From: Bacteroidia bacterium
GTDB taxonomy: Bacteria > Bacteroidota > Bacteroidia > J057 > JADKCL01
Assembly (NCBI GenBank): GCA_041565275.1
Contig: JBFGVE010000002.1
Coordinates: forward strand, 8,775-72,774
Length of the DNA stretch: 64,000 bases
Direction: 5' to 3'
Shown in pieces: positions 1-12,810 of this stretch (positions are counted from its first letter, which is position 1; each line of letters opens with the position of its first letter). Both the position numbers and the translations under genes were made by a program. Under the pieces are notes generated by a model. It was not told the origin of the DNA. It worked only from the letters and a program-made list of their open reading frames with translations, and did no database searches.

Positions 1-822
1 TTTTTTGTACTGTTCCAGTTCTTCCTTGGTACGGTATTTGGCGGGATCAGACATAGAGTGCCCTTTATACCTGTAGGTTTTAATTTCAAGGAAGACGGGT
101 CCATGTCCAGGGGTACGGACCAGCTCTGCTGCCTTTTTAGTGTTTTCGTACACTTCGAAAACACTCATGCCATCAACCTGCCAGGCCGGCATTTCATAAC
201 CACTGGCCAATCTGTACAGTTCGGTGACATTTGAAGTACGCTCCACGGAAGTACCCATGGCGTATTCATTGTTCTCCACCATGTAAAGGACAGGAAGTCT
301 CCAGGTCATAGCCAAGTTGAAAGCCTCGTGAAAGGCGCCCTGGCGAATAGCACCGTCACCGAAAATACAGACACAAATTTTGTCTTCATTACGATACTTG
401 TTGGCAAATGCGACTCCGGCACCTAAAGGGATTTGAGCACCTACAATACCGTGCCCCCCCAACATATTATGCTCTTTAGAGAACATGTGCATGGATCCAC
501 CTTTACCCTTGGAACAGCCTGTGGATTTGCCATACATCTCAGCCATTACCTGATTGGGAGAAATCCCTCTGGTAAGTGCAATACCATGATCGCGGTAAGC
601 AGTGATGACTTGATCATCTTTGCGGATAGCTGCCTCAAGTCCGGATGAAACGGCCTCCTGGCCTATATAGAGGTGGCAAAAGCCTTTGATCTTTTGCTGC
701 ATATACATTTGGCTGGATTTCTCCTCAAACCTTCTTTGCAACAGCATCTCCTCGTACCAATGCATTAACAATTCCACGTTGTAGGGCTGATCTTCTCGCG
801 TTTCAGTCTTAGATTTTGCCAT
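1..822 (-). CDS. pdhA: Pyruvate dehydrogenase E1 component alpha subunit (partial; C-terminus lies beyond the left edge)
   Basis: Absent from the ORF track because it runs off the edge. My minus-strand translation from the ATG at 822..820 gives MAKSKTETREDQPYNVELLMHWYEEMLLQRRFEEK..FCHLYIGQEAV..GKGGSMH..CIFGDGAIRQGAFHEAFNLA..YRYKGHSMSDP. This is the TPP-dependent E1-alpha pattern. Confidence 0.85.
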   Translation of the reverse strand, partial: MAKSKTETREDQPYNVELLMHWYEEMLLQRRFEEKSSQMYMQQKIKGFCHLYIGQEAVSSGLEAAIRKDDQVITAYRDHGIALTRGISPNQVMAEMYGKSTGCSKGKGGSMHMFSKEHNMLGGHGIVGAQIPLGAGVAFANKYRNEDKICVCIFGDGAIRQGAFHEAFNLAMTWRLPVLYMVENNEYAMGTSVERTSNVTELYRLASGYEMPAWQVDGMSVFEVYENTKKAAELVRTPGHGPVFLEIKTYRYKGHSMSDPAKYRTKEELEQYKK

Positions 823-915: not shown

Positions 916-1287
916 CTATCTTAAAAGAGTAGCGACCCACTGTCCCAACCATATCCCTCCCAGGCAGATTACCACTGATATTCCGATATACAGGAATGCA
1001 AGACCTGTCCTGCCGTCTTGGAAGAGATCTAAAGACTCAAAGCTAAAGGTTGAAAATGTACTGAAGCCACCGCAAAATCCGGACATTACTCCCAACTGCG
1101 CAGTCCGTGACATTTCGAAGCGTTGGAGCAGCAATCCAGCAAAAAAACCGAGTACGATACAAGCCACCAAGTTAGCAGCCAGAGTTCCAATAGGGAAGCC
1201 GGTTTCAGTTGATCCAAGCCAGCGACCCAGGCCATACCTCGCCAGGCTGCCTATGCCTCCACCTATGAACAGGGCTAAAAGATCCAC
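916..1287 (-). CDS. crcB: Fluoride ion channel CrcB/FluC
   Basis: 123 aa and very hydrophobic. MDLLALFIGGGIGSLARYGL at the N-terminus and GFCGGFSTFSTF centrally are typical of CrcB. The GTG start overlaps the upstream stop codon by 1 nt. Confidence 0.85.
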   Translation of the reverse strand: MDLLALFIGGGIGSLARYGLGRWLGSTETGFPIGTLAANLVACIVLGFFAGLLLQRFEMSRTAQLGVMSGFCGGFSTFSTFSFESLDLFQDGRTGLAFLYIGISVVICLGGIWLGQWVATLLR

Positions 1288-1943: not shown

Positions 1944-3473
1944 TTATGAGATCAGAACATTACCTGTCATAGCAGCAGGGATTTCAATGTCCATAAGGCG
2001 AAGGATGGTAGGGGCAATGTCTCCCAGCTTCCCAGTTGTTAACCGCCAATCCCTTTTTTCGTTTGAATGCAGGATCAATGGCACCCGAGAAGTGGTATGG
2101 GCGGTATGGGCCGAGCCGTCAGGATTTTTCATTTTGTCAGCATTGCCATGGTCAGCGGTAACCAGAACAGTATATCCACTTTCTAGCGCTACTTCGACTA
2201 TTTGGCGGGTACAGTAGTCAACGGTTTCACAAGCTTTGACTGTAGCTTCCCAAACCCCGGTATGCCCTACCATGTCCGGGTTGGCAAAGTTTAGGCAAAC
2301 GAAATCGACATTCCTTTTTTGCAATTCAGGGATGATTTTATCTCTGATATGAAAGGCACTCATTTCAGGTTGGAGGTCATAAGTGGCTACCTCGGGTGAT
2401 GGGCAGAGAATGCGCGATTCCCCGGTAAAAGGTTCTTCGCATCCCCCATTGAAGAAAAACGTTACATGGGGGTATTTCTCTGTTTCCGCAATGCGGATCT
2501 GCTGTTTTCCCATCCGGCTTAGTACTTCTCCCAAACCATCAGGTATGTCTGGCTTATCAAAAAGTACTTCTACCCGTTCAAAGGTTTCATCGTAACGGGT
2601 CATGGTAAAGAAAGCCAGGTTGATGCATTGAGTAGCTTCTTCTGGAAAATCCTTTTGGGTAAGCATGGTGGTCAGTTGACGACCACGGTCGGTACGAAAA
2701 TTGTAAAAAAGTACGGCATCTCCTTCTTGAATGGTACCAATGGGTTGTCCGTTTTCTGTAATCACTATGGGCTCAATGAATTCATCCGTTATACCCGCAT
2801 TGTAAGAAGCCTGAACAGCATCTTCAGCAGATTGGTAGGCGGTTCCTTCCCCCTGGGTTAAAAGGCGGTAAGATTTGGCGACTCGGTCCCATTTTTGGTT
2901 TCTGTCCATGCTGTAGTACCGGCCGATTACAGATGCGATCTTGCCGATCCCGACTTCATCCACATAGCCCTCTACTTGGCGAACATACTCCAATCCACCA
3001 TTTGGGTCAGTATCACGGCCATCGGTGAAGACGTGAATAAAAACCTGAGGCAAGTCTTCGTGCTGGGACAGAACCTTAAGAATACCCTGCAGGTGAGTAA
3101 TATGTGAATGGACACCGCCGTCGCTAAGCAAACCAAGTAAATGAATTGGTTTTTGTTTTTCCTTAGCGTAGGTAACCAATTGCTGAAAGGTGGTATTGGC
3201 TCCGAAGCTGCCATCTTTCAGTGCCTTGGAAATCCGGATCAACTCCTGGTATACAACCCTGCCTGCCCCAATGTTCATGTGACCGACTTCTGAATTGCCC
3301 ATCTGCCCTGCAGGAAGTCCGACAGCTTCACCAGATGCCTCCAGTGTGGTATGGGGCAGGTATGAAATAGAATGATCGAAAAAGGGCGTATTGGCAGAGT
3401 CAATGGCGGAAACAGATGGATTTGCTGCAATTCCCCAACCGTCCATAATGATTAGAATTACTCTCCTGCTCAT
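1944..3473 (-). CDS. gpmI: 2,3-bisphosphoglycerate-independent phosphoglycerate mutase
   Basis: 509 aa. MSRRVILIIMDGWG, NSEVGHMNIGAGR, LLSDGGVHSH and VTADHGNA are hallmark iPGM motifs. Confidence 0.95.
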   Translation of the reverse strand: MSRRVILIIMDGWGIAANPSVSAIDSANTPFFDHSISYLPHTTLEASGEAVGLPAGQMGNSEVGHMNIGAGRVVYQELIRISKALKDGSFGANTTFQQLVTYAKEKQKPIHLLGLLSDGGVHSHITHLQGILKVLSQHEDLPQVFIHVFTDGRDTDPNGGLEYVRQVEGYVDEVGIGKIASVIGRYYSMDRNQKWDRVAKSYRLLTQGEGTAYQSAEDAVQASYNAGITDEFIEPIVITENGQPIGTIQEGDAVLFYNFRTDRGRQLTTMLTQKDFPEEATQCINLAFFTMTRYDETFERVEVLFDKPDIPDGLGEVLSRMGKQQIRIAETEKYPHVTFFFNGGCEEPFTGESRILCPSPEVATYDLQPEMSAFHIRDKIIPELQKRNVDFVCLNFANPDMVGHTGVWEATVKACETVDYCTRQIVEVALESGYTVLVTADHGNADKMKNPDGSAHTAHTTSRVPLILHSNEKRDWRLTTGKLGDIAPTILRLMDIEIPAAMTGNVLIS

Positions 3474-3633
3474 GAATGCAAAGGTAATCGAATTCAGATC
3501 ATAAACTCGCTTAGGTTGCCACGGGTATTCTAGACTATCGCGCCCATTTTCTGGTTGATTAGTGTATTTCTCATTGTTAGGAGCGGAAAAAACCTTAACT
3601 TAGTTTGTTAAGTGTAAAGAAACGCCACGTAAG

Positions 3634-4086
3634 ATGAATCTTGTCAACAATACTCGTCAATCCTTCCTGATACTTTTGCTGATATTTTCTTTTGCCGCCA
3701 CTCAGGCTCAAAGTTTTAGATTGACTGAGGTGTCCGACGTCCATACTGTAAGTATCGATAAAGATACTGCTCCTGATCTGGACTGGGGTATAACCAAATT
3801 GGGATCTGTCGTTCGAGCAAAAGTGGAATTCACCAATACGCTTGGTAAACAGGTCACATTGGTTCGGGTTTTAGCCAGTGAAGGGTGCTATATTGTTGGT
3901 AGCCTTTACCCCTTAAGGAATGTCAAGGTCGAACCCGGTCAAACCCAAGAATTTTTCGTCATCGCCAAAGGCGACGAATTAGGAGAACATACCTACAATG
4001 TAGAATTGATCCTTGAAGATGAAAAAGGGATACGTTCTCGCAGGGGCGTTTTTCAATTTCGTGGTTCAGTCGACGCGAGAGAATAG
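3634..4086 (+). CDS. Small secreted protein, DUF1573-like (PapD/ASH-type beta-sandwich)
   Basis: 150 aa with a signal peptide (FLILLLIFSFAATQAQ). The layout LDWGITKLGSVVRAKVEFTNTLGKQVTL..EGC..VEPGQTQEFFV resembles DUF1573 proteins. This is motif-level only. Confidence 0.45.
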   Translation: MNLVNNTRQSFLILLLIFSFAATQAQSFRLTEVSDVHTVSIDKDTAPDLDWGITKLGSVVRAKVEFTNTLGKQVTLVRVLASEGCYIVGSLYPLRNVKVEPGQTQEFFVIAKGDELGEHTYNVELILEDEKGIRSRRGVFQFRGSVDARE

Positions 4087-4161
4087 CCAACTTTACGATC
4101 CAGCAAAGGAAATCCAAGTTGGTGTTGATATTCACCAAGAGTGAGATAGCTGATCGTTACC

Positions 4162-5193
4162 TCAATTGAATAGCAGTATTTCACTGGGTATTGCTCCTGC
4201 TTTCCGTTCCATTTGCAGGTTGCCACTGTTTAAATCAAACTGGATTATATTCCCCGCTTGAACAAAATCAACTGCGTCTGTGATCAGAACAAAATCTTCC
4301 TGAAGATGGAAATTGTAAAATGTCCGGTTGGTAGCCTCAATAAAAGGACTGGTCGGTAAAGTTGTCTCTTCTATCCCCATCTTGTAAAAGTCCCCATCGA
4401 GGAAATACAGTGTTTGCCCATCTTGTGAAACCGCCAATTGAGTGGGATTTCTTTGCAGGCTGGGGAACGGAAAGGCATCTTCGACAGATCGGGTGGCAAC
4501 ATTCAGGCGCATCAAATTCGGGATCTCTTTTCCTATTCCACCGCTGGACAGTACCCAAACATCTCCTTTGGCATCCCGGACCAAACTGTTGGGTTCGAGG
4601 CCCACAGTTATACTGTCCATTACCTGGTCTGTAAGGATGTCGATCAACACGATTTTATCCGACCCCATCTTGGTCACCCAAGCTTCATTCCCGATCAAAA
4701 GCATTTCTTCTGTCCAGGCTCCGATCGGGATTTCTCCGGTTTGGGTGCAGTTGACGGGATTGACTACGGTCAATGAGCCTGAATAAAGATCACTCAGATA
4801 GGCCTTTTGTGAATTGATGGGCAGTAAGAATCGGGGAGAGGTGAGTCCTTCCAAATGGGCTTCAATTTTTCCAGTAACGATGTCCAGTTTGAAGAGCCTA
4901 CCACTGTTGTTTACCACAATGAAAACGGAGGAATCTATCCGGACCATAGATTGAGCGACATCACCCAATGGGATTCCATTGGCTTCAAAAAAAATATTTT
5001 GAAACACCTCACCTTCAGGATCCATAAAAGAAAGGGAAGCATTTCCCCAATTGAAATTCCCTTCGTTGAGAATCCAGGTTCCCTTGGACAAGTCGGAAGT
5101 TACATCTGGAACAGGGATTGGCTCGCCGGTGTTGCCACAACCAGCAAAAGCCAGGATCAGAATTCCTGACAGAAGAGTAAACAAATATTTCAT
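4162..5193 (-). CDS. Surface lipoprotein, beta-propeller-like (YncE/DUF5074-like); last gene of the B12-riboswitch operon and a candidate BtuG-type partner of the receptor
   Basis: 343 aa with a lipobox LILAFAGC. ILNEGNFNWGNASLSF follows just after the signal, then repeated strand-turn segments. The ATG overlaps the receptor stop (ATGA at 5190..5193). Confidence 0.55.
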   Translation of the reverse strand: MKYLFTLLSGILILAFAGCGNTGEPIPVPDVTSDLSKGTWILNEGNFNWGNASLSFMDPEGEVFQNIFFEANGIPLGDVAQSMVRIDSSVFIVVNNSGRLFKLDIVTGKIEAHLEGLTSPRFLLPINSQKAYLSDLYSGSLTVVNPVNCTQTGEIPIGAWTEEMLLIGNEAWVTKMGSDKIVLIDILTDQVMDSITVGLEPNSLVRDAKGDVWVLSSGGIGKEIPNLMRLNVATRSVEDAFPFPSLQRNPTQLAVSQDGQTLYFLDGDFYKMGIEETTLPTSPFIEATNRTFYNFHLQEDFVLITDAVDFVQAGNIIQFDLNSGNLQMERKAGAIPSEILLFN

Positions 5194-7139
5194 AGTCCTT
5201 TGCGTTCGAGTTGAAGTTTAATACCCAAATAAAAATTGCGACCAGGCATAGGCCGCCAGGCTATAGCTTGGTAGTCTGTATTCCACAGGTTTCTAATTCC
5301 TCCGTAAGTCTCGATCCGGGTGGATCTCCCCAAGGCGAAACTGCCCCGGACTTCACCCAGGTGATAGCTGGGAAGAAAGGTAGAATGATCGCTGGAAGTA
5401 TAGCGAATACCGGTAAATTGCTGAAAGACATAAAAATTAAAGCGCCCGTAGTTGCCTTGGAAGGAGATAGTACTGTTGTGAAGAGGGGTGTAGATCAACT
5501 GTTTGTCGAGGGCGATTGTCTGATCAGGCTGGGCCTGTATTCCCTGGCTGAAAACGAGGGCATAACCTGCTTTGATCCTGTAATTGAATCTATGGGTGTT
5601 TTGAAACCATTCCAGGTTGATCTCCCCTCCTCTGGTAAAGACCAATTGCACATTCTCAGGTGACCAAATATTACCCTGTTGTGGTATCCATTGGATCCAA
5701 TTGTCAATCAAGGATGCATAGAAGTCGGTCCCTATGATTAATTTCCGTTCATTTCGATTGCTAAGTGGCATGATCACTTTATCGAAACCCGCTTCGGCGG
5801 TCCAGGAGGTTTCGGTTTTTAGGTCTGGATTTCCACCAGGAACCCAGTACCGATCATTTAGGGTCGGAAAACGGTAATTTCTCGAAAGATTGACATTAAA
5901 ATGGTTAAAGTTATTGATGCGGTAGTGGTAGGCTGCATATCCGTAAGGGAGGGTGAACCGGCCGTTTTGGTAGGACTCCCGGACCAGAAGGTTGATGCGG
6001 TGTTTGCTTTTTCCCATTTTAAGTTTTGCAAAGGCAGTGGCTTTGATTTGGGAAAGGTCTTCGCCAAATACTTCAGAGCGAGCAATATCATACCCCATTT
6101 GGCCTCCGAATTTTAAATGGTCATCGTGAGGAAGTTTGGGATTAAGTGGAGTAAACTCTACATTGATGTCATTTTGAAAAGAGAGGGAACTACTGAAGAT
6201 AGAGGCCTGATAGTTTTGGTAATCGAGCCGTTCGGAACTGTGAGAGAGGGTACTTACCAGCATCCACTTGCCTGGAATGGTCCTTCGGTATTCAAGTTGT
6301 GCTTTGAGGGCACGGTCATATTGGGATTCGGTGAGATTACTGGTCAACATGGTGGGGGGCAACTCCCGGTCTGCAACATTGAACCAGATCCGGCCTATAA
6401 GTCCTTTTTCATAACTGCCTAGCCCAACTTGGTGCATGATGGAGAGTTGACTCATCCGGCTATGTTGAAGGGTGTCCAAGGGGCTTCCAGATCGGGCAAT
6501 ATTGCGGAATGTAAAATCATTTCGACCTGTGATTGCAACGGCCTGGATCGCCATCCAAAGTTTCCCTTTTCGGAATTGACCATCAAGGTGACTCCTGAAA
6601 TTTCCAAAGCTCCCGGCTTCTTGTCCTACTTCGAACTGTGCACAATTTCCCTCATAACCAAATAAACCCCAATTTGAAAGGTCAATTGCACCACCCAGTC
6701 CGCCGGATCCTAGGTCTAAAGATGTACTGCCAAAATGAACTTCTATCTTGTCAAAGAGCCCAACTGCACCCAAACTGAGATCTGTCTGGCCCGTCATGGA
6801 TGAGTTCATGGGAACCCCATTCCAGAATATCTGGGTATGACCCGCACCTGTACCCCTGAAAGAGGGTGTCGACAGGCCCACCTGCCCGTAGCTTTTGATG
6901 AATACGGCTGGGACCTCATTGAGTAGATCTGCCAAAGGAGAGGATTTGTGAAATTCGATTTGAGCTGGCCTGATATTGAGAACATTCTCGCGAGGGCTTA
7001 TTTCTAGGATCTCAACTGCTGGGAGTTCACTTGTATCAATGGAATCAATCGATTGCTCATCAACTATCTGTCCTGTCACCCAACTCGAATACAGCAATAC
7101 GCAGGTTAAAATGGTTACAAAATAGCGCCTATTGTACAT
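5190..7139 (-). CDS. btuB: TonB-dependent outer-membrane receptor, BtuB-sized (putative cobalamin/corrinoid receptor)
   Basis: 649 aa with a signal peptide. The plug region reads VPAVFIKSYGQVGLSTPSFRGTGAGHTQIFWNGVPMNS..GQTDLSL and is followed by a long beta-barrel-type sequence. It lies in an operon behind a cobalamin riboswitch. The gene symbol is inferred from context, not from a search. Confidence 0.7.
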   Translation of the reverse strand: MYNRRYFVTILTCVLLYSSWVTGQIVDEQSIDSIDTSELPAVEILEISPRENVLNIRPAQIEFHKSSPLADLLNEVPAVFIKSYGQVGLSTPSFRGTGAGHTQIFWNGVPMNSSMTGQTDLSLGAVGLFDKIEVHFGSTSLDLGSGGLGGAIDLSNWGLFGYEGNCAQFEVGQEAGSFGNFRSHLDGQFRKGKLWMAIQAVAITGRNDFTFRNIARSGSPLDTLQHSRMSQLSIMHQVGLGSYEKGLIGRIWFNVADRELPPTMLTSNLTESQYDRALKAQLEYRRTIPGKWMLVSTLSHSSERLDYQNYQASIFSSSLSFQNDINVEFTPLNPKLPHDDHLKFGGQMGYDIARSEVFGEDLSQIKATAFAKLKMGKSKHRINLLVRESYQNGRFTLPYGYAAYHYRINNFNHFNVNLSRNYRFPTLNDRYWVPGGNPDLKTETSWTAEAGFDKVIMPLSNRNERKLIIGTDFYASLIDNWIQWIPQQGNIWSPENVQLVFTRGGEINLEWFQNTHRFNYRIKAGYALVFSQGIQAQPDQTIALDKQLIYTPLHNSTISFQGNYGRFNFYVFQQFTGIRYTSSDHSTFLPSYHLGEVRGSFALGRSTRIETYGGIRNLWNTDYQAIAWRPMPGRNFYLGIKLQLERKGL

Positions 7140-7142
7140 CTG

Positions 7143-7550
7143 TCATTGTCTTGCATGGTACGGGTTGAGCACTTTTGCCGTGAATTCGTGTTGGTCATCG
7201 ATTTTAATGCGAAAAATATATACGGCCCCCGGCTGCTTTTGCAGCGTATACTCTTCTTCCCAGTTGCCTTCGGCGGCTGTGGTCCAATGTTCCATCCTTT
7301 GCCCACTCATGGCATATACCTCCACTTCTACGGAAGTTTTTATTCCTTTAAACCGAAGGAGTACGGTCCAGTTGTTATTCTCTTCGCGCATACCGAGCTC
7401 GACTTTGGCTTCGGTGAATGGTTCTTTCCCTATCTGGAAGGCTGTACTTGTACAGGCGTAGCCATCTCCGGCACCTCCAGTATAAGGTACCTGTGCGGAA
7501 CCCGTAAAGGTAAAGGCTAACCCAAATGTGAGAACAGTGAGCCATTTCAT
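7143..7550 (-). CDS. Secreted miniprotein: signal peptide plus short linker plus a T9SS-CTD-like C-terminal domain
   Basis: 135 aa with signal MKWLTVLTFGLAFTFTGSAQ. The C-terminal part (VEVEVYAMSGQRMEHW..YTLQKQPGAVYIFRIKIDDQHEFTAKVL) looks like a Por_Secre_tail sorting domain. ATGA overlap with the upstream gene at 7547..7550. Its stop lies 3 nt from the receptor start. Confidence 0.5.
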   Translation of the reverse strand: MKWLTVLTFGLAFTFTGSAQVPYTGGAGDGYACTSTAFQIGKEPFTEAKVELGMREENNNWTVLLRFKGIKTSVEVEVYAMSGQRMEHWTTAAEGNWEEEYTLQKQPGAVYIFRIKIDDQHEFTAKVLNPYHARQ

Positions 7551-9091
7551 CTCCGCACCCCTCTTCCTCCGGATGTTCCGCGTCTGGAGGACGGTGCCAG
7601 CCCAGAATAATACCTGTCCGATACCGCCAAGTCACGGAACCCTGGTAGAATACCACTGTTCCAGCCTCCTCCCCGGTAGCCACCACCGGCACTTTCTGGC
7701 CAACCTGAAACATCAGCGTTGCCATTTGTATCCAGTTGTCCATTTCCATTACTTCCCAAGAAGGAAACACCAACCGGGCCTGCATTGACGCACTGTTCCC
7801 ATAGGTTGCCGCTCATTTCCATGACACCATAGTAGGAGGCGCCAGATTGCAGGCGGTCACTGCTGGCGTGGGCTGCAAAGCCGCAGCGGAGTGGCCCTTG
7901 GGGACCGTCGTAGCCGTGGCTGGCCAGTCCCATTAAAGCAGTAGGTGATTCTGTCACCGACTCCCATAGGGTACCGTCTTGTAAAAGGGTATTGGCATCC
8001 ATCACCAAATCAGTTCCCCAGGCGAATTCATTTGGAACTGGGACCACAGGACCACGGCAAGCCTTTTCATACTCTAGTTCTGTCATGGGGGAAAGGCCTG
8101 CCCAATCAAAATAGGCCAGGAGATCCTCCCAGTTAAGAAAATTGCAGGCGCGGTTCTGACCATCCTCCTCGCTGTTGAAAGCTCCATCTGCAGAAAGATC
8201 GGATCCGAAGACGGCTGGCTGTCCATTCAATCCAGGTTGATAAACCCGGATTCCATTTCGAAGATTGGCGAAACGGGTGAAGGCATGGGTGCCAGCTTCA
8301 ACATACGGCCCGGATGAGGTCCGGGAGACTTGTTGGTCAACCGTCAAGTGGTTGAGAAAGTCTGTGTATTGTTCTTGACTGATCTCATACTTCATGCAAT
8401 AGAAGCCATTGCTACCTTTGGGATACGCCGCAGGAATTAATCCATTGGGAGGATATGTACTGTTTCCGGTGGTAGATCCGGGGTCGGGTCCGAGTGCAAT
8501 TTCAGATTCGTCCATAACCAGTACAGTTGCTTGGGAAGTACTCTCTCCAAGACTGAAATTGCTGCTGCCATCTCCTAGCCAATATGGCCCCCCCGGAATC
8601 CAGACCATTTCCACACCAAATACATCCAAAGAATAATTGCCCTCGGCAAGTGCGTTGGCCAACTGGAGGGTAACCTGAGTGCTATAGATTGTGCCCGAAC
8701 CAATATAGCAGCGTTTTAAGAATACCCCGAGACCATCTGAAACAGGGTTGATGGTCAATAGGTAAGGGTCAGAAGACTCAAAGCCAATTCCTGAATTAGA
8801 AAATTGAAGTGGGTCCCACTCTCCCTCACCTGTCTTGATCTTGGCAAAGATCCAAACTGCATCGTGGTTACCGGGCCCAATGTTCAAGTACCAGCTGTTT
8901 TCCCAACTGACTCGGAACGAAATCGTTTGCTTATCTACCAGCCTGGCGTCACTCAATTGCAGGTTATTGGCAAGTGAAATCTGGAAAAACAATCCTACAC
9001 AAAGCATAGTTCTACCCAATTGGCAAAAAGGGAGGAAGATCCGTTGATGGATTTTGGACCTCCGGTGGATCATTTTTGATAAATTGATCAC
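7547..9091 (-). CDS. FGE-sulfatase/SUMF1-family (GldJ/GldK-like fold) protein with a unique N-terminal domain
   Basis: About 510 aa. Family-like motifs are MVWIPGGPYWLGDG, LSPMTELEYEKACRGP, SGNLWEQCVN and YRGGGWNSG. There is an N-terminal hydrophobic signal. The start is ambiguous: GTG at 9091 (overlapping the upstream stop) or ATG at 9073. Confidence 0.65.
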   Translation of the reverse strand: MINLSKMIHRRSKIHQRIFLPFCQLGRTMLCVGLFFQISLANNLQLSDARLVDKQTISFRVSWENSWYLNIGPGNHDAVWIFAKIKTGEGEWDPLQFSNSGIGFESSDPYLLTINPVSDGLGVFLKRCYIGSGTIYSTQVTLQLANALAEGNYSLDVFGVEMVWIPGGPYWLGDGSSNFSLGESTSQATVLVMDESEIALGPDPGSTTGNSTYPPNGLIPAAYPKGSNGFYCMKYEISQEQYTDFLNHLTVDQQVSRTSSGPYVEAGTHAFTRFANLRNGIRVYQPGLNGQPAVFGSDLSADGAFNSEEDGQNRACNFLNWEDLLAYFDWAGLSPMTELEYEKACRGPVVPVPNEFAWGTDLVMDANTLLQDGTLWESVTESPTALMGLASHGYDGPQGPLRCGFAAHASSDRLQSGASYYGVMEMSGNLWEQCVNAGPVGVSFLGSNGNGQLDTNGNADVSGWPESAGGGYRGGGWNSGILPGFRDLAVSDRYYSGLAPSSRRGTSGGRGVRR

Positions 9092-10383
9092 CGCTTGATT
9101 AAATGTTTTGTATAGTCACCAGATTCCGCATGTAATTTGAGCAGGTAGTTTCCTGCTGAGAGGTTACTTAGATCAAGCTCGGTGATTACCTTCACTTCCG
9201 AAGTGAAAAAGACACAATTCCCGGAAAAGGAGTAGATCCTTATAGAGAGGGGTAAGTCATTCAGACGACTTGCATCTATTGTTACCTGATCCGTGAAGGG
9301 GTTGGGATAGGATTTAACAATTACCTCGTCTGAGAACAAATCACTGGAACCAGTGGCGAGGCGCCCATCTACGTCAAAGGCTTCAGGTGAGACTCCTACT
9401 GCCACGGAATCTATCAGAATTCCGGAGGAATTATACCGGTAAATACTCCCCCAGGTACTGTAATCGGTTGCAGACAGATAAAATTCTATGTTCTGGGTAT
9501 CCATGGCACTTCCGGCCCAAGGCCCGGGGATCATAGGTGTATTGCTGAGTGCATAGGGATTTGATCCTTCGATCTCAACACTGTTAAAAGCTCCGTCAAA
9601 CATACCGTAGAGGGTATTGCCAACCAGGGTTGTAGCGCCGTTGAAGCCGATAGGGTAGGGTACTGTGGTGGAAATTGCGGTGCGTGCTCCGAGTGGAATC
9701 TGGGAAATAACTCCGGTAGTACTGCCAAAACTGAGGGAACTCAGAGTGTAGAGCATACTGTCACCTGGGCGGAAGAAAATGTCAGTGACAGATTCTCCCA
9801 GTGAGTCAAGGTTAATTTCGGTGATGAGCGTGCTGTTGTTCAGGTTGATCAGGGCAACTTTACCCGTTGTACTACCGAATCCACCAGGGACGGTCACATA
9901 GGCAGTGTCATTGACCACAACTACTCCTTCGCATTGGCCGGAAATGTTTTGTACAGCAGCAACTTCGCTGAGGTCAGACTGGTTGAAGATCCGTACGTAG
10001 TCAGAGTTAACGGGAAACCCACAAGCCGCAACAAGGGCGGCCTGGTTCGGAGCAGTGGTAATGGATCGAACTCCGGGAGCAGGTACAGACGACATTCGGG
10101 TATAAGTGTCGATGTTATACTTCAGGATCATACCGTCAGCGGCAACATATGCGTACTGGCCGTCGACCAGCACATCCTGTACTGAGCTAACCTCAATTGT
10201 ATCAAAAATGAAGTAACTGCCGGTAACAAGGTTCCAGGCAGCAACCGTAGCTGCATCAGTTGTGTCTGCAAAATCTCCTCCGTTGGCGATGATCAACTGC
10301 CTTGAAGGTTGGGCCAGTGACAGCAGCGGAATGAAGAAAGCACTAAAGAATGCGAATCCGATAAGAATAGAAGAAAACCTCAT
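9088..10383 (-). CDS. T9SS-secreted protein, beta-propeller-like body with a C-terminal Por sorting domain; first gene after the cobalamin riboswitch
   Basis: 431 aa with signal MRFSSILIGFAFFSAFFIPLLSLAQ. The body has LIIANGGDF and repeated strand-turn segments. The C-terminus KSYPNPFTDQVTIDAS..IRIYSFSGNCVF..LSAGNYLLKLH..YTKHLIKR is a typical type-A T9SS CTD. Confidence 0.65.
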   Translation of the reverse strand: MRFSSILIGFAFFSAFFIPLLSLAQPSRQLIIANGGDFADTTDAATVAAWNLVTGSYFIFDTIEVSSVQDVLVDGQYAYVAADGMILKYNIDTYTRMSSVPAPGVRSITTAPNQAALVAACGFPVNSDYVRIFNQSDLSEVAAVQNISGQCEGVVVVNDTAYVTVPGGFGSTTGKVALINLNNSTLITEINLDSLGESVTDIFFRPGDSMLYTLSSLSFGSTTGVISQIPLGARTAISTTVPYPIGFNGATTLVGNTLYGMFDGAFNSVEIEGSNPYALSNTPMIPGPWAGSAMDTQNIEFYLSATDYSTWGSIYRYNSSGILIDSVAVGVSPEAFDVDGRLATGSSDLFSDEVIVKSYPNPFTDQVTIDASRLNDLPLSIRIYSFSGNCVFFTSEVKVITELDLSNLSAGNYLLKLHAESGDYTKHLIKR

Positions 10384-10504
10384 AGCGTTAAATTAGGCTA
10401 ACAATGAATACCATGAGCTTTGGATGTGAAATGAGGTGACAAGTCGGAAAACCTGTACCCGCATTTTCATGATAACTTTTCACCCGAAAGCCCTGAAACT
10501 ATGC

Positions 10505-10680
10505 AAAAGGCAGGTCTTCTGGCTTCCCAAACTCTGGTACCTTCCCATTCGGACATGAACAGTGGTTTTGACCAGATCCCGACCTGGATCGGGTGGGTTA
10601 CAGCAGCGGGGACTGCTCCGGAATTACACCGGATTCCCTTTTAATCCCAGGTCGTCGGACCCGGAAACCTATGCGGCACG
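10505..10680 (-). promoter_or_regulatory. Cobalamin (adenosylcobalamin/B12) riboswitch
   Basis: Four conserved blocks read 5'->3' on the minus strand. AAAAGGGAATCCGGTGTAATTCCGGAGCAGTCCCCGCTGCTGTAA is at 10642->10598. AACCACTG is at 10567->10560. GGGAAGGTACCAGAG is at 10546->10532. The B12 box AGCCAGAAGACCTGCC is at 10524->10509. All are in canonical order, about 125 nt upstream of the ATG at 10383. Confidence 0.88.
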
Positions 10681-10745
10681 AAAGTAGGGATTATTCTCAA
10701 CAAATCTTGTATTTTCGCGTTATAACATGGAATTGATCTGAATAA

Positions 10746-11243
10746 ATGATACATCGATTTGCATTCATCCTGTTATTGCCCATTTACTTTGGTCAGATTT
10801 CAGTGGCCCAGCCGCTGATCAGGGTTATCAAGTTTCCGGATCTGGAATCCTACTTCGATCGGGAGAATGACACTCTCTATGTGATCAACTTTTGGGCTAC
10901 TTGGTGCCGCCCCTGCGTGGCTGAGCTTCCCTTCTTCGATGATGCGGCAGAAAAGTATGCGGAAGATCAGGTTCAGGTATTACTCGTGAGTCTTGATTTT
11001 GTGGATGAAATCGATGGTAGAGTGGCAGAGTACATTGCCCGCAGGGAACCCCAGTCTCCTATTTTGTTATTGGATGAACTCAACGCCAATTCCTGGATCG
11101 ACAAAGTTGCTGCTGAATGGACAGGCGCGATCCCAGCGACTATTTTCGTCAATAAAAAACAAGGTATTCGGGAGTTTCACCAAGGTGATTATACCCGGCA
11201 AGAATTATTTAAAAAGTTAGAAGAATTAATCCACAAGCCATGA
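10746..11243 (+). CDS. TlpA/ResA-like periplasmic thiol:disulfide oxidoreductase
   Basis: 165 aa with a signal peptide and the thioredoxin-fold motif FWATWCRPCVAELP. Confidence 0.8.
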   Translation: MIHRFAFILLLPIYFGQISVAQPLIRVIKFPDLESYFDRENDTLYVINFWATWCRPCVAELPFFDDAAEKYAEDQVQVLLVSLDFVDEIDGRVAEYIARREPQSPILLLDELNANSWIDKVAAEWTGAIPATIFVNKKQGIREFHQGDYTRQELFKKLEELIHKP

Positions 11244-11866
11244 AAAAATTAGTTATTGTATTTACTCTTGCAATGCTTTCATGCGTATTTCTTTATCAGG
11301 CCCATGCCCAGACTGATAAAGCACTGATCGGAGAGAAGGCCCCCACATTTAATCTGAAAAATATAGACGGTAGTATGGTTAGCCTTGATGACTATACCGG
11401 ATCCGAAGGTGTAATATTAATCTTTACCTGTAACCACTGCCCTTACAGCAAACTGTACGAAGACCGCATCAATGAACTAGACGACACACATAGAGGACAG
11501 GGGTTCCCAGTGGTCGCCATTAACCCCAATGACCCCATTGCCTATCCTGAAGACAGCTATGAGAATATGATCGCTCGAGCTAATGAAAAATCATTTAGCT
11601 TCCCTTACCTATTTGACGAAACCCAGGAAGTTGCAACTGCTTATGGTGCTGCCCGAACTCCTCATGCTTATGTGTTGGTCCGAGATAAAGAGAGTGAACA
11701 ATTCTATGTTCGCTATGTGGGTGCCATCGATGATAACCCCAAGGATCCAGATGCAGTTCAGGATAAGTTTATTGAACAAGCGATCACGGATATCAAGAGT
11801 GATAGTGCTGTTTCAAATGAGTACACCAAGGCAATAGGTTGCTCGATCAAATGGAAGGAAAACTAA
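11240..11866 (+). CDS. Thioredoxin-fold (AhpC/TSA-redoxin-like) protein
   Basis: 208 aa with a signal peptide and a CxxC site in ILIFTCNHCPYSK. ATGA overlap with the upstream Trx-like gene. Confidence 0.7.
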   Translation: MKKLVIVFTLAMLSCVFLYQAHAQTDKALIGEKAPTFNLKNIDGSMVSLDDYTGSEGVILIFTCNHCPYSKLYEDRINELDDTHRGQGFPVVAINPNDPIAYPEDSYENMIARANEKSFSFPYLFDETQEVATAYGAARTPHAYVLVRDKESEQFYVRYVGAIDDNPKDPDAVQDKFIEQAITDIKSDSAVSNEYTKAIGCSIKWKEN

Positions 11867-11934
11867 TGGACATTTTACCATTAAACGTCCTAATTAATAA
11901 AAAACTCTCGTCCAGTAATTTAAAACCCCTCCTC

Positions 11935-12810
11935 CTATTCATGTAAGAGTTTCAATAAATATTCCCCGTATCCACTTTTGATCAGCGGCTTAGCTACCTC
12001 TCGTAATTGGTCGTCGTCGATGAAACCCATTCTCCAGGAAACCTCTTCGATACAGCCAACCTTGAGCCCCTGTCGCTTCTCGATGATTTGTACAAAATTC
12101 CCGGCATCTATCAATGAATCATGAGTTCCGGTATCTAGCCAAGCCGTACCCCGACTGAGAATTGAGACTTTTAGTTTTCTGTTTTTCAGGAAAACGCGGT
12201 TCACATCTGTGATCTCCAATTCACCTCTAGAAGAGGGCTTGAGCTCTTTAACAATGTCAATTACAGAGTTGTCATAAAAATAGATTCCCGGCACTGCAAA
12301 GGATGACTTGGGCCGCTCAGGTTTTTCTTCGATGGATAATGCTTCACCATTTTCAGCAAATTCCACTACACCATAACGTGCAGGGTCAGATACGTGGTAG
12401 GCGAATACCATTCCACCACCTTCTTCGCGAATCGTCCGTGAACCCTCCTGCAGGGTTTTAATCAATTCCGTACCGTAGAAGATATTGTCACCAAGGATCA
12501 AGGCCACATCATCCGCTCCTACAAAATCTGCCCCGATGATAAATGCCTGCGCCAACCCTTCTGGGCTGGGCTGGACCGCATATTCGATCCGCATCCCCAG
12601 GTTGGCTCCGTCGCCAAGTAACTGGCGGAACAAATCCGTATGTTCGGGAGTAGAGATGATTAACAATTCACGAATCCCAGCCATCATCATGGTTGAAAGG
12701 GGGTAGTAGATCATTGGCTTGTCGTAAACTGGCATGAGTTGCTTACTTACCGCAATGGTCAATGGATACAAACGGGTGCCGGAACCGCCAGCAAGGATGA
12801 TGCCTCTCAT
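11935..12810 (-). CDS. rfbA: Glucose-1-phosphate thymidylyltransferase
   Basis: [36 protein letters not shown] are canonical RfbA/RmlA motifs. I moved the start from the track's 12912 to the ATG at 12810, because the 34-aa track extension is not RfbA-like. Confidence 0.93.

Follow-up and report, generated by a model that had tools for sequence, protein, structure and literature searches.

What is a protein with the fold of a formylglycine-generating enzyme (FGE, also SUMF1) doing in a vitamin B12 operon? The question is raised by a contig of a Bacteroidia bacterium (JBFGVE010000002.1), of which a stretch of 64,000 nucleotides, hereafter the window, was analysed, and in which an open reading frame (ORF) of 514 amino acids (aa) at positions 7547..9091 of the minus strand lies in an operon headed by a cobalamin riboswitch and ending in genes for a BtuB-type transporter and a BtuG-type lipoprotein. 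The answer that we favour, at a probability of about one in two, is that this FGE-like protein is a non-enzymatic docking protein that would get its type IX secretion system (T9SS) signal and its surface anchor in trans, and that has been recruited in this operon as an accessory of BtuBG. A preliminary description of the window had seen the protein as part of a cobalamin regulon; what it missed is that the constant companion of the whole family is a neighbouring gene for a T9SS cargo protein with an N-terminal GGxxDG motif, and not B12.

In the window, this adjacent gene encodes a protein of 135 aa (7143..7550, minus strand), whose ATG shares bases with the stop codon of the FGE-like gene (ATGA). 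Its layout consists of a signal peptide (residues 1-19), an N-terminal peptide of the mature protein (residues 20-~42, with the codons of residues 20-42 at 7425..7493, minus strand), a linker of roughly 20 residues and a half formed by a T9SS C-terminal sorting domain of type A (CTD, ~57-135), where the YPNP / GxY / K-hydrophobic pattern is found as in its relatives. The mature N-terminus reads QVPYTGGAGDGYACTSTAF.. / QVPYTGGAGDGYAC... and carries one YTGGAGDGY motif, in which G25, G28 and G30 are invariant in the partner alignment; in the whole 64-kb window, a motif of the GGxxDG type occurs only this once. Regarding the small partners of the other riboswitch-linked loci (the B12 clade, see below), 7 out of 14 reach the gathering score of PF18962, and a hidden Markov model of the CTD, built from the C-terminal halves of 14 aligned small proteins with that of the window included, matched 78 of the 762 ORFs in the loci, 64 of them at the very C-terminus and with Pfam-verified CTDs among them. 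Judged by its sequence, the 135-aa ORF is a minimal form of the T9SS cargo partner.

How general this pairing is can be seen from a survey of 78 loci from reference genomes, in which the flanking genes were scanned with Pfam. Where a next gene follows the FGE-like gene (or genes), its product reaches the gathering score of PF18962 in 50 of 66 loci, and outside the B12 clade in 44 of 52, while the product of the preceding gene does so in 11 of 71 loci, 10 of these 11 being in the B12 clade (10 of its 14 loci). The strict motif, defined as [YFWVLHIA]xGGxxDG within the first 90 residues, is present in 42 of the 66 next genes vs 3 of the 696 other ORFs (of at least 80 aa) in the same loci, and these three lie beside an FGE-like paralogue or a BtuB gene; several of the 24 next genes that miss it have relaxed forms (GGSGGGY, GSKGDGY) or result from ORF-calling errors. 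In the downstream proteins, the motif, in the form [YF]xGGxxDG, directly follows the signal peptide. Partners outside the B12 clade contain 3-13 copies of it, mostly 27 (105 of 157 spacings) or 26 residues (35 of 157) apart and with a Cys 16 residues past the GG in 77% of 206 units, and after the repeats they have PKD or Ig_7 domains and then the CTD. In Flavobacterium loci (L039, L048, L030 and others; about 2000-12400), the cassette comes after genes for two TPR-histidine kinases and a LuxR-type response regulator, and the partner there is 870-1280 aa long, with 4-5 N-terminal GGxxDG repeats, PKD, 7-12 Ig_7 domains and the CTD.

The two proteins of the window are also predicted to bind each other. 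When residues 41-514 of the FGE-like protein (95-row alignment) were modelled together with residues 20-62 of the partner (14-row alignment), with the alignments unpaired, the interaction prediction score from aligned errors (ipSAE) was 0.96, 0.95 and 0.94 in three runs, vs 0.00 for the best of three controls, and the runs shared at least 87% of the contacts, with about 150 confident contacts. The ipSAE mark applied is reached by 116 of 157 solved complexes and by 2 of 215 mismatched pairs, counts which are only a rough benchmark because our own alignments were used. In the model, the N-terminal peptide of the partner docks between the beta-sandwich that makes up the N-terminal domain of the FGE-like protein and its FGE-like domain, and all partner residues from 20 to 42 (23 residues) belong to the predicted interface. 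The partner strand 31-38 runs antiparallel to residues 153-161 of the FGE-like protein and touches residues 44-46, i.e., it is a strand addition to the sandwich, for which the predicted docking domain (residues 42-168) is encoded at 8588..8968 of the minus strand. The sandwich contributes residues 41-51, 54-77 and 148-163 to the interface, while the Gly-rich motif faces residues 234-244, 312-315 and 402-422 of the FGE-like domain. The universally conserved residues in the predicted interface are N42, W63, W67, N75, D77, E161, K234, Y235, Q241, A315, G404, R413, G417 and G422, the first five of which are at the same time signature residues of the N-terminal domain.

As regards the FGE-like protein itself, the ORF was found at exactly the position described before, and the four family blocks quoted for it are all present (MVWIPGG..WLGDG at residues 162-175, LSPMTELEYEKACRGP at 333-348, GNLWEQCVN at 428-436 and YRGGGW at 472-477). 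The assignment to the FGE/SUMF1 fold is borne out by Pfam (PF03781 at residues 228-434, E 1.7e-9, 38.2 bits with a cut-off of 23.3) and by structure prediction: the AlphaFold2 model, obtained from a 95-sequence alignment with a predicted local distance difference test (pLDDT) value of 90.7 and a predicted template modelling score (pTM) of 0.90, aligns to solved FGEs at Z 19-20. The best VIA-align match was the T. curvata FGE 5nxl (Z 19.8, root-mean-square deviation (rmsd) 2.9, 226 aligned residues), essentially tied with human FGE, EgtB (19.2), PvdO (18.7), PorK (18.6; chain 9p6h_B, rmsd 5.1, 238 aligned) and T. denticola TvpA (18.1), and FGE structures also took the top ranks in Foldseek (6xtp, E 7.3e-9). 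About 225 residues align with the FGE and EgtB structures, at 22-23% identity; a sequence search of the solved structures, with the single protein or with the family profile, reached the central FGE blocks only (E 7.5e-5 at best). The first 170 residues, of which it had been said that they match nothing, indeed hit no Pfam or NCBIfam family. They are made of a signal peptide (1-41) and the beta-sandwich (42-~168), which is followed by the FGE-like domain (~169-514). When modelled alone, the sandwich has a pLDDT of 92.7, and none of the 48,161 solved chains compared with it reaches Z 8 (the best was CBM3b, Z 6.5); in the ESM Atlas it matches unnamed Bacteroidota clusters only (0.91-0.92).

The family is large. 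A word-indexed search gave 3049 relatives at E <= 1e-3 among 8000 candidates scored, and since the best 120 of the 3049 relatives are 459-577 aa long, both domains travel together. With a profile of the N-terminal domain, 2348 cluster representatives (defined at 50% identity) were found at E <= 1e-3 and 1910 at E <= 1e-10 in a search of 1.84 billion. The window holds no paralogue of the FGE-like gene. Some members (P0127, P0140, P0141 and P0231, of 1377-1466 aa, and other representatives of 1050-1550 aa) have two or three copies of the N-terminal domain per polypeptide, which suggests fused tandem sandwich-plus-FGE units, paralleling the tandem paralogues in the loci L038, L068 and L069. Two further members come from a Luminiphilus sp. 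(L010) and a Bifidobacterium breve (L012) metagenome-assembled genome (MAG), on contigs of 7.1 and 3.3 kb; they are binned as Gammaproteobacteria and Actinomycetota yet nest among Bacteroidota in the tree, and are probably binning contamination.

With such a fold, is the protein not simply an enzyme? It could modify the GGxxDG repeat of its neighbour, the sandwich recruiting the substrate and the FGE-like domain catalysing, so that the small protein of the B12 operon would be a modified, surface-anchored peptide. This explanation, which we regard as unlikely but as the main rival, has the database on its side, where the family is annotated as 'SUMF1/EgtB/PvdO family nonheme iron enzyme' or 'formylglycine-generating enzyme', and the closest solved folds are those of enzymes. 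Adjacency of enzyme and substrate genes is common, the predicted complex sets the motif against the FGE-like domain, and several repeats, mostly with a Cys at +16, for usually one FGE-like gene would be a typical enzyme-to-substrate ratio. The catalytic residues speak differently. The catalytic cysteines of human FGE, C336 and C341 (positions read from the titles of mutant entries in the PDB), lie near the C-terminal end of the range 86..368 that aligns onto residues 158..514 of the model, while the last Cys of the FGE-like protein is C434 of 514; since the fold alignment reaches residue 514 and no Cys comes after 434, the catalytic Cys have no counterpart and there is no FGE Cu site. A catalytic FGE was therefore rejected, despite PF03781 and the FGE fold. 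A sulfoxide synthase of the EgtB/OvoA type was rejected as well, as the N-terminal domain is an all-beta sandwich and not the DinB-like domain with an iron-binding His triad that we take to be the defining feature of these enzymes, and as the 63 positions universally conserved among 90 family members include no His and a single Cys, C232. No sulfatase gene was seen among the operon genes or the neighbours scanned in related loci, a feature that is not strictly defining. Furthermore, the Cys of the repeat is missing in most B12-clade partners, and a predicted interface of this size, with strand pairing, looks stable rather than transient. With the Cys pair missing and the docking of a peptide predicted, the adaptor option of the preliminary description fits better than its enzyme option.

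Another residue, C316, is nearly invariant in the family and adjoins the predicted interface residues 312-315. A disulfide tether in the style of GldK-SprF, via C232/C316 and the Cys of the partner repeat, is conceivable.

A docking protein may also act without leaving the cell envelope, i.e., as a periplasmic chaperone or pilot that holds the N-terminus of GGxxDG cargo until its export and itself stays in the periplasm. This we consider improbable. It would agree with the strict adjacency to T9SS cargo, with the predicted binding of the cargo N-terminus and with the localisation signals of the FGE-like protein: 76 of 90 family members have Ala directly before the conserved NN[LVI] with which the mature protein starts, as in a type I signal peptide, just one of the 90 shows a lipobox-like string, and the protein has no T9SS sorting domain of its own (PF18962/TIGR04183). 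In the B12 clade, however, the cargo is motif plus CTD only, so there would be nothing to chaperone, and fusions point outside the cell. In one member of 669 aa (P0191), an additional Ig-like stretch leads to a PF18962 CTD in cis (32.2 bits), and because no internal signal peptide is present this is a true fusion and not a two-gene read-through; other fusions are to GEVED, to fn3 plus Lcl_C, to Ice_binding and to Lcl_C plus PT-HINT. Such fusions were 6 of the 23 odd-length members scanned, from the 150 listed for the N-domain profile. As these are secreted or surface domains, they speak for an extracellular place of action of the FGE-like module and for the partner as the source of the T9SS signal in most members.

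Where, then, does vitamin B12 come in? The riboswitch at the head of the operon (10492..10687, minus strand) matches RF00174 over the full model (1-189) with 103.8 bits and E 6.9e-25, and it is the sole Rfam match at the gathering score in the window. It is followed, on the same strand, by a 431-aa T9SS cargo protein (9088..10383), the FGE-like gene, the 135-aa ORF, a transporter of 649 aa (5190..7139) and a surface lipoprotein of 343 aa (4162..5193). The starts and stops overlap or nearly abut: the FGE-like gene starts with a GTG that overlaps the upstream stop codon (GTGA), with an ATG 6 codons further on, and three bases separate the stop of the 135-aa ORF from the ATG of the transporter. 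A scan for promoters and terminators gave 9 promoter-like sites vs 10.1 expected. The transporter, a BtuB-type TonB-dependent receptor (PF07715 and PF00593), has its best solved relatives in the B. thetaiotaomicron BtuB chains 8bmx_C, 8p98_A and 8p97_A (E about 5e-46). The lipoprotein, with a Cys in its signal peptide, belongs to the seven-bladed propeller family of BtuG (PF16819, 57.6 bits) and matches solved BtuG at E 1.9e-52 (8p97_B) and about 1e-50 (8bmx_D and 3dsm), entries that are given as BtuG3, BtuG2, apo-BtuG2 and BtuBG complexes in the available text of PMC10404256. Given these matches to solved proteins, we are dealing with a true BtuB-BtuG operon under riboswitch control, which has three extra genes in its front part. 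The placement in a cobalamin regulon, between a T9SS cargo gene and btuB, was thus correctly recognised from the start, the flanks being the 431-aa PF18962 protein on one side and the 135-aa ORF with the BtuB-like receptor behind it on the other.

The first of the extra genes encodes a protein with a type-A CTD (PF18962, 49.8 bits at residues 359-429; TIGR04183, 46.4 bits). It is probably a beta-propeller and may be related to BtuG. With BtuG structures it shows only a weak tail match (E 0.015), and with the 343-aa BtuG homologue no significant BLASTP match. Relatives of it were found by tblastn in 12 of the 78 loci. In the window and in L001-L003, L007, L008, L011, L015, L047 and L070, the family has a conserved (I/V)(I/V)A(N/S)GG.F opening strand that resembles the ILNEGNF start of the BtuG homologue, a similarity that is not significant; it hints at a distant BtuG-like propeller in which the CTD replaces the lipid anchor.

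Riboswitches of the other loci were located with an nhmmer profile made from eight Rfam-verified riboswitches. An RF00174 element upstream and on the same strand was found in 14 of the 78 loci in addition to the window, so that orthologues near B12 riboswitches do exist; Rfam confirmed 14 of 14 and agreed with nhmmer in 5 of 5 negatives tested. In a tree of 90 family proteins (IQ-TREE quick, LG+G4), the 15 riboswitch-linked proteins (14 loci and the window) together with L006, whose contig has only about 390 bases upstream of the gene, form one clade of 16 rows, with a Shimodaira-Hasegawa-like approximate likelihood ratio test (SH-aLRT) value of 99. It spans Chitinophagales, Cytophagales, Sphingobacteriales and one Rikenellaceae MAG, and the remaining 74 of the 90 rows have no B12 context. 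By this phylogeny, the B12 link belongs to one clade of a larger family only. The order riboswitch, propeller-CTD, FGE-like, small partner, BtuB and BtuG recurs in the loci of the clade, and 15 of its 16 members have a small gene for motif plus CTD; in the remaining one (L005) the contig ends 600 bases past the FGE-like gene. There are variations. In two Chitinophagales loci (L011:4813-5241 (-) and L047:4653-5036 (-)), the small partner is on the opposite strand and heads btuB-btuG, divergent from the arm of riboswitch, propeller-CTD and FGE-like gene, and no second riboswitch was detected for this partner arm. In the Rikenellaceae MAG (L045:5936-8948), the genes behind the riboswitch encode a DUF4465 protein (162.9 bits), then the FGE-like protein and then a 138-aa motif-plus-CTD protein, with neither the propeller nor btuB directly after, and in L029 two DUF5074 genes come after the cassette. 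DUF4465 is a B12-binding domain according to the available text of PMC13398666. In L007, a DUF805b RNA motif (RF02914, 44.4 bits) lies at 3265-3302 (+), about 2 kb upstream of the riboswitch.

The riboswitch control, kept across the taxa of the clade, the co-operonic position with BtuB/BtuG (in L045 with DUF4465) and a His at residue 76 specific to the B12 clade could mean that the FGE-like protein itself binds or chemically remodels corrinoids, the adjacency of the small protein being secondary. We find this quite improbable, as most of the family has no B12 context, no more than 5 positions set the B12 clade apart (H76, R486, D487, A489 and R504), and neither in sequence nor in fold does the protein match BtuG, DUF4465 or other known B12-binding families. 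The co-variation of residue 76 with position +6 of the partner (His with Tyr, in 13 of 15 His pairs) was not taken as evidence, since a single clade can account for it and since the list of interface residues does not include residue 76.

The weakest explanation, a structural part of the T9SS or gliding machine of the GldJ/GldK/PorK type, shares with our protein the FGE fold (PorK, Z 18.6), the phyla and the surroundings of T9SS cargo genes, and is very improbable indeed for a protein with a type I signal peptide and no lipobox, with no NCBIfam model at E <= 0.01 in a library that presumably includes GldJ/GldK, with a PorK score no better than that of FGE enzymes, with tandem copies and varied cargo contexts instead of gldLMN-type genes, and with a whole clade under a B12 riboswitch, which is unlikely for core machinery. 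GldJ, GldK and PorK are lipoproteins. PorK is present in the fold lists while GldJ and GldK are not, although absence from a list is no evidence. What remains of the structural GldK/GldJ-like adaptor proposed earlier is therefore the adaptor, while the kinship beyond the shared fold does not hold.

Returning to the docking protein with a signal in trans, we picture its action as follows. Members of the FGE-like family would be exported by Sec, and their job would not be enzymatic; it would be the binding of the mature N-terminus of a T9SS cargo encoded by the neighbouring gene, where the partner strand would extend the beta-sandwich at its edge while the Gly-rich motif packs on conserved FGE-like residues. 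As the 135-aa protein is reduced to signal peptide, motif, linker and CTD, it can be read as a separable tag for secretion and anchoring. In the periplasm, it would dock onto the FGE-like protein and take the complex through the T9SS, and the complex may then stay tethered to the surface once the CTD has been swapped for a lipopolysaccharide anchor, the exchange that is the usual fate of a type-A CTD. In one clade, the two-gene cassette has come under the control of a cobalamin riboswitch, along with BtuB-BtuG and a T9SS-anchored propeller, and its most likely role in this operon is to assist corrinoid uptake at the cell surface. Hitch-hiking export, the surface location and the role in B12 capture are all steps that we infer from this arrangement.

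Several points weigh against this proposal. The complex is a prediction from our own unpaired alignments, in which the partner has a pLDDT of only 66-67, and the conservation of the interface is modest (14 of 66 positions, vs 49 of 408 elsewhere, i.e., about two-fold). The CTD of the 135-aa partner stays below the cut-off of TIGR04183 (21.8 bits, cut-off 23) and has no Pfam hit. The multiple repeats of the non-B12 partners, with usually one FGE-like gene, fit an enzyme equally well as multivalent docking. Of the 64 loci called riboswitch-free, 59 were called with the nhmmer profile only. Direct contact of the FGE-like protein with corrinoids has no support, because the clade-specific positions are only 5, no new ligand pocket can be seen and the partner is predicted to occupy the FGE groove. 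Finally, no precedent was found for T9SS export of a non-covalent complex.

The surroundings of the operon in the window are briefly as follows. Two thioredoxin/AhpC-TSA-like genes (10746-11243 (+) and 11240-11866 (+)) are divergent from the riboswitch; one such thioredoxin-like gene is present in the closest relative (L001:4694-5191 (-)), and none was found in the other B12-clade loci checked. Just downstream of btuG, 3634-4086 (+) encodes a secreted protein of 150 aa with a weak TMEM131_like_N match. Within 916-1287 (-)/1287-1931 (-) there is a CrcB fluoride channel gene and, beside it, an ORF of 214 aa that has no Pfam family; no fluoride riboswitch was found in the window at the gathering score.

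Compared with known systems, the nearest likeness is to PorK, GldK and GldJ, which, as far as the available texts describe them, come from the same phyla and have the FGE fold, which has lost the catalytic Cys and serves for the docking of other proteins or their tails. In PorK, what is the substrate groove in FGE has become a place where proteins dock (available text of PMC12421860), and for GldK the tails of outer-membrane partners provide a tether (available text of PMC12635249). The differences are that the FGE-like protein has an N-terminal beta-sandwich and, unlike these three, is not a lipoprotein; that it is predicted to bind a peptide from the N-terminus of a cargo protein, instead of PorN/GldN or a C-tail disulfide; and that its gene is accessory, variable between clades and sometimes in tandem, whereas PorK, GldK and GldJ are core machinery. 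With FGE/SUMF1 and EgtB/OvoA it has in common PF03781 and the structural similarity at Z 19-20, but not the Cys pair, the DinB domain or, among the neighbours examined, a sulfatase gene. BtuG, BtuH/DUF4465 and BtuJ are also found in cobalamin-riboswitch operons with BtuB and BtuG; these are lipoproteins with demonstrated B12 binding, as far as the texts available to us go, while the FGE-like protein has another fold, no lipid anchor and, in our proposal, a dependence on the T9SS. Export in trans is alike in concept alone to Tat co-translocation and to peroxisomal piggy-back import, with a different machine and membrane; a folded protein that lacks a signal rides on a partner bearing one (available text of PMC4273604), and the T9SS passes folded proteins via a 36-strand barrel (available text of PMC9251779). 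Weak neighbours of the N-terminal domain are AP2 mu2 and staphylococcal adhesins of the ClfA/SdrE type, where strand addition is alike; their Z values of 5.5-5.9 are in the range of chance fold resemblance, and no homology is claimed.

In the literature searched (without subscription journals and supplements), no link between FGE-like proteins and B12 loci was found, the cassette is not described, and there is no report of hitch-hiker export by the T9SS; two papers on B12 (PMC12751083 and PMC8941943) make no mention of formylglycine, FGE, SUMF or sulfatase. The family is thus undescribed in that literature, while non-catalytic docking by an FGE fold is already known in Bacteroidota. The FGE fold was recently shown to be a docking hub in the core of the T9SS (PorK, GldK and GldJ), and here we would see a variable use of it on the side of the cargo, with a defined short ligand, [YF]xGGxxDG plus a strand.

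The known accessory binders of B12, namely BtuG, BtuH and BtuJ, are lipoproteins of gut Bacteroides. The operon described here, which is listed in whole or in part for three DNA runs of one marine metagenome study and for no RNA run, indicates that environmental Bacteroidota add T9SS-anchored parts to BtuBG. It is possible, and we put it forward tentatively, that the T9SS exports a protein devoid of a sorting domain by means of a GGxGDGY-plus-CTD tag, that the pairs of FGE-like protein and GGxxDG cargo form a modular system of surface display, in which a larger partner with its repeats could be a stalk for several FGE-fold heads, and that the B12 clade is a new class of T9SS-dependent surface accessories with which environmental Bacteroidota capture vitamin B12. 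If a secretion signal can indeed be supplied in trans, this would be a new T9SS route and possibly a tool for surface display, and the thousands of FGE-like/GGxxDG-cargo pairs in Bacteroidota would represent a modular surface-display system.

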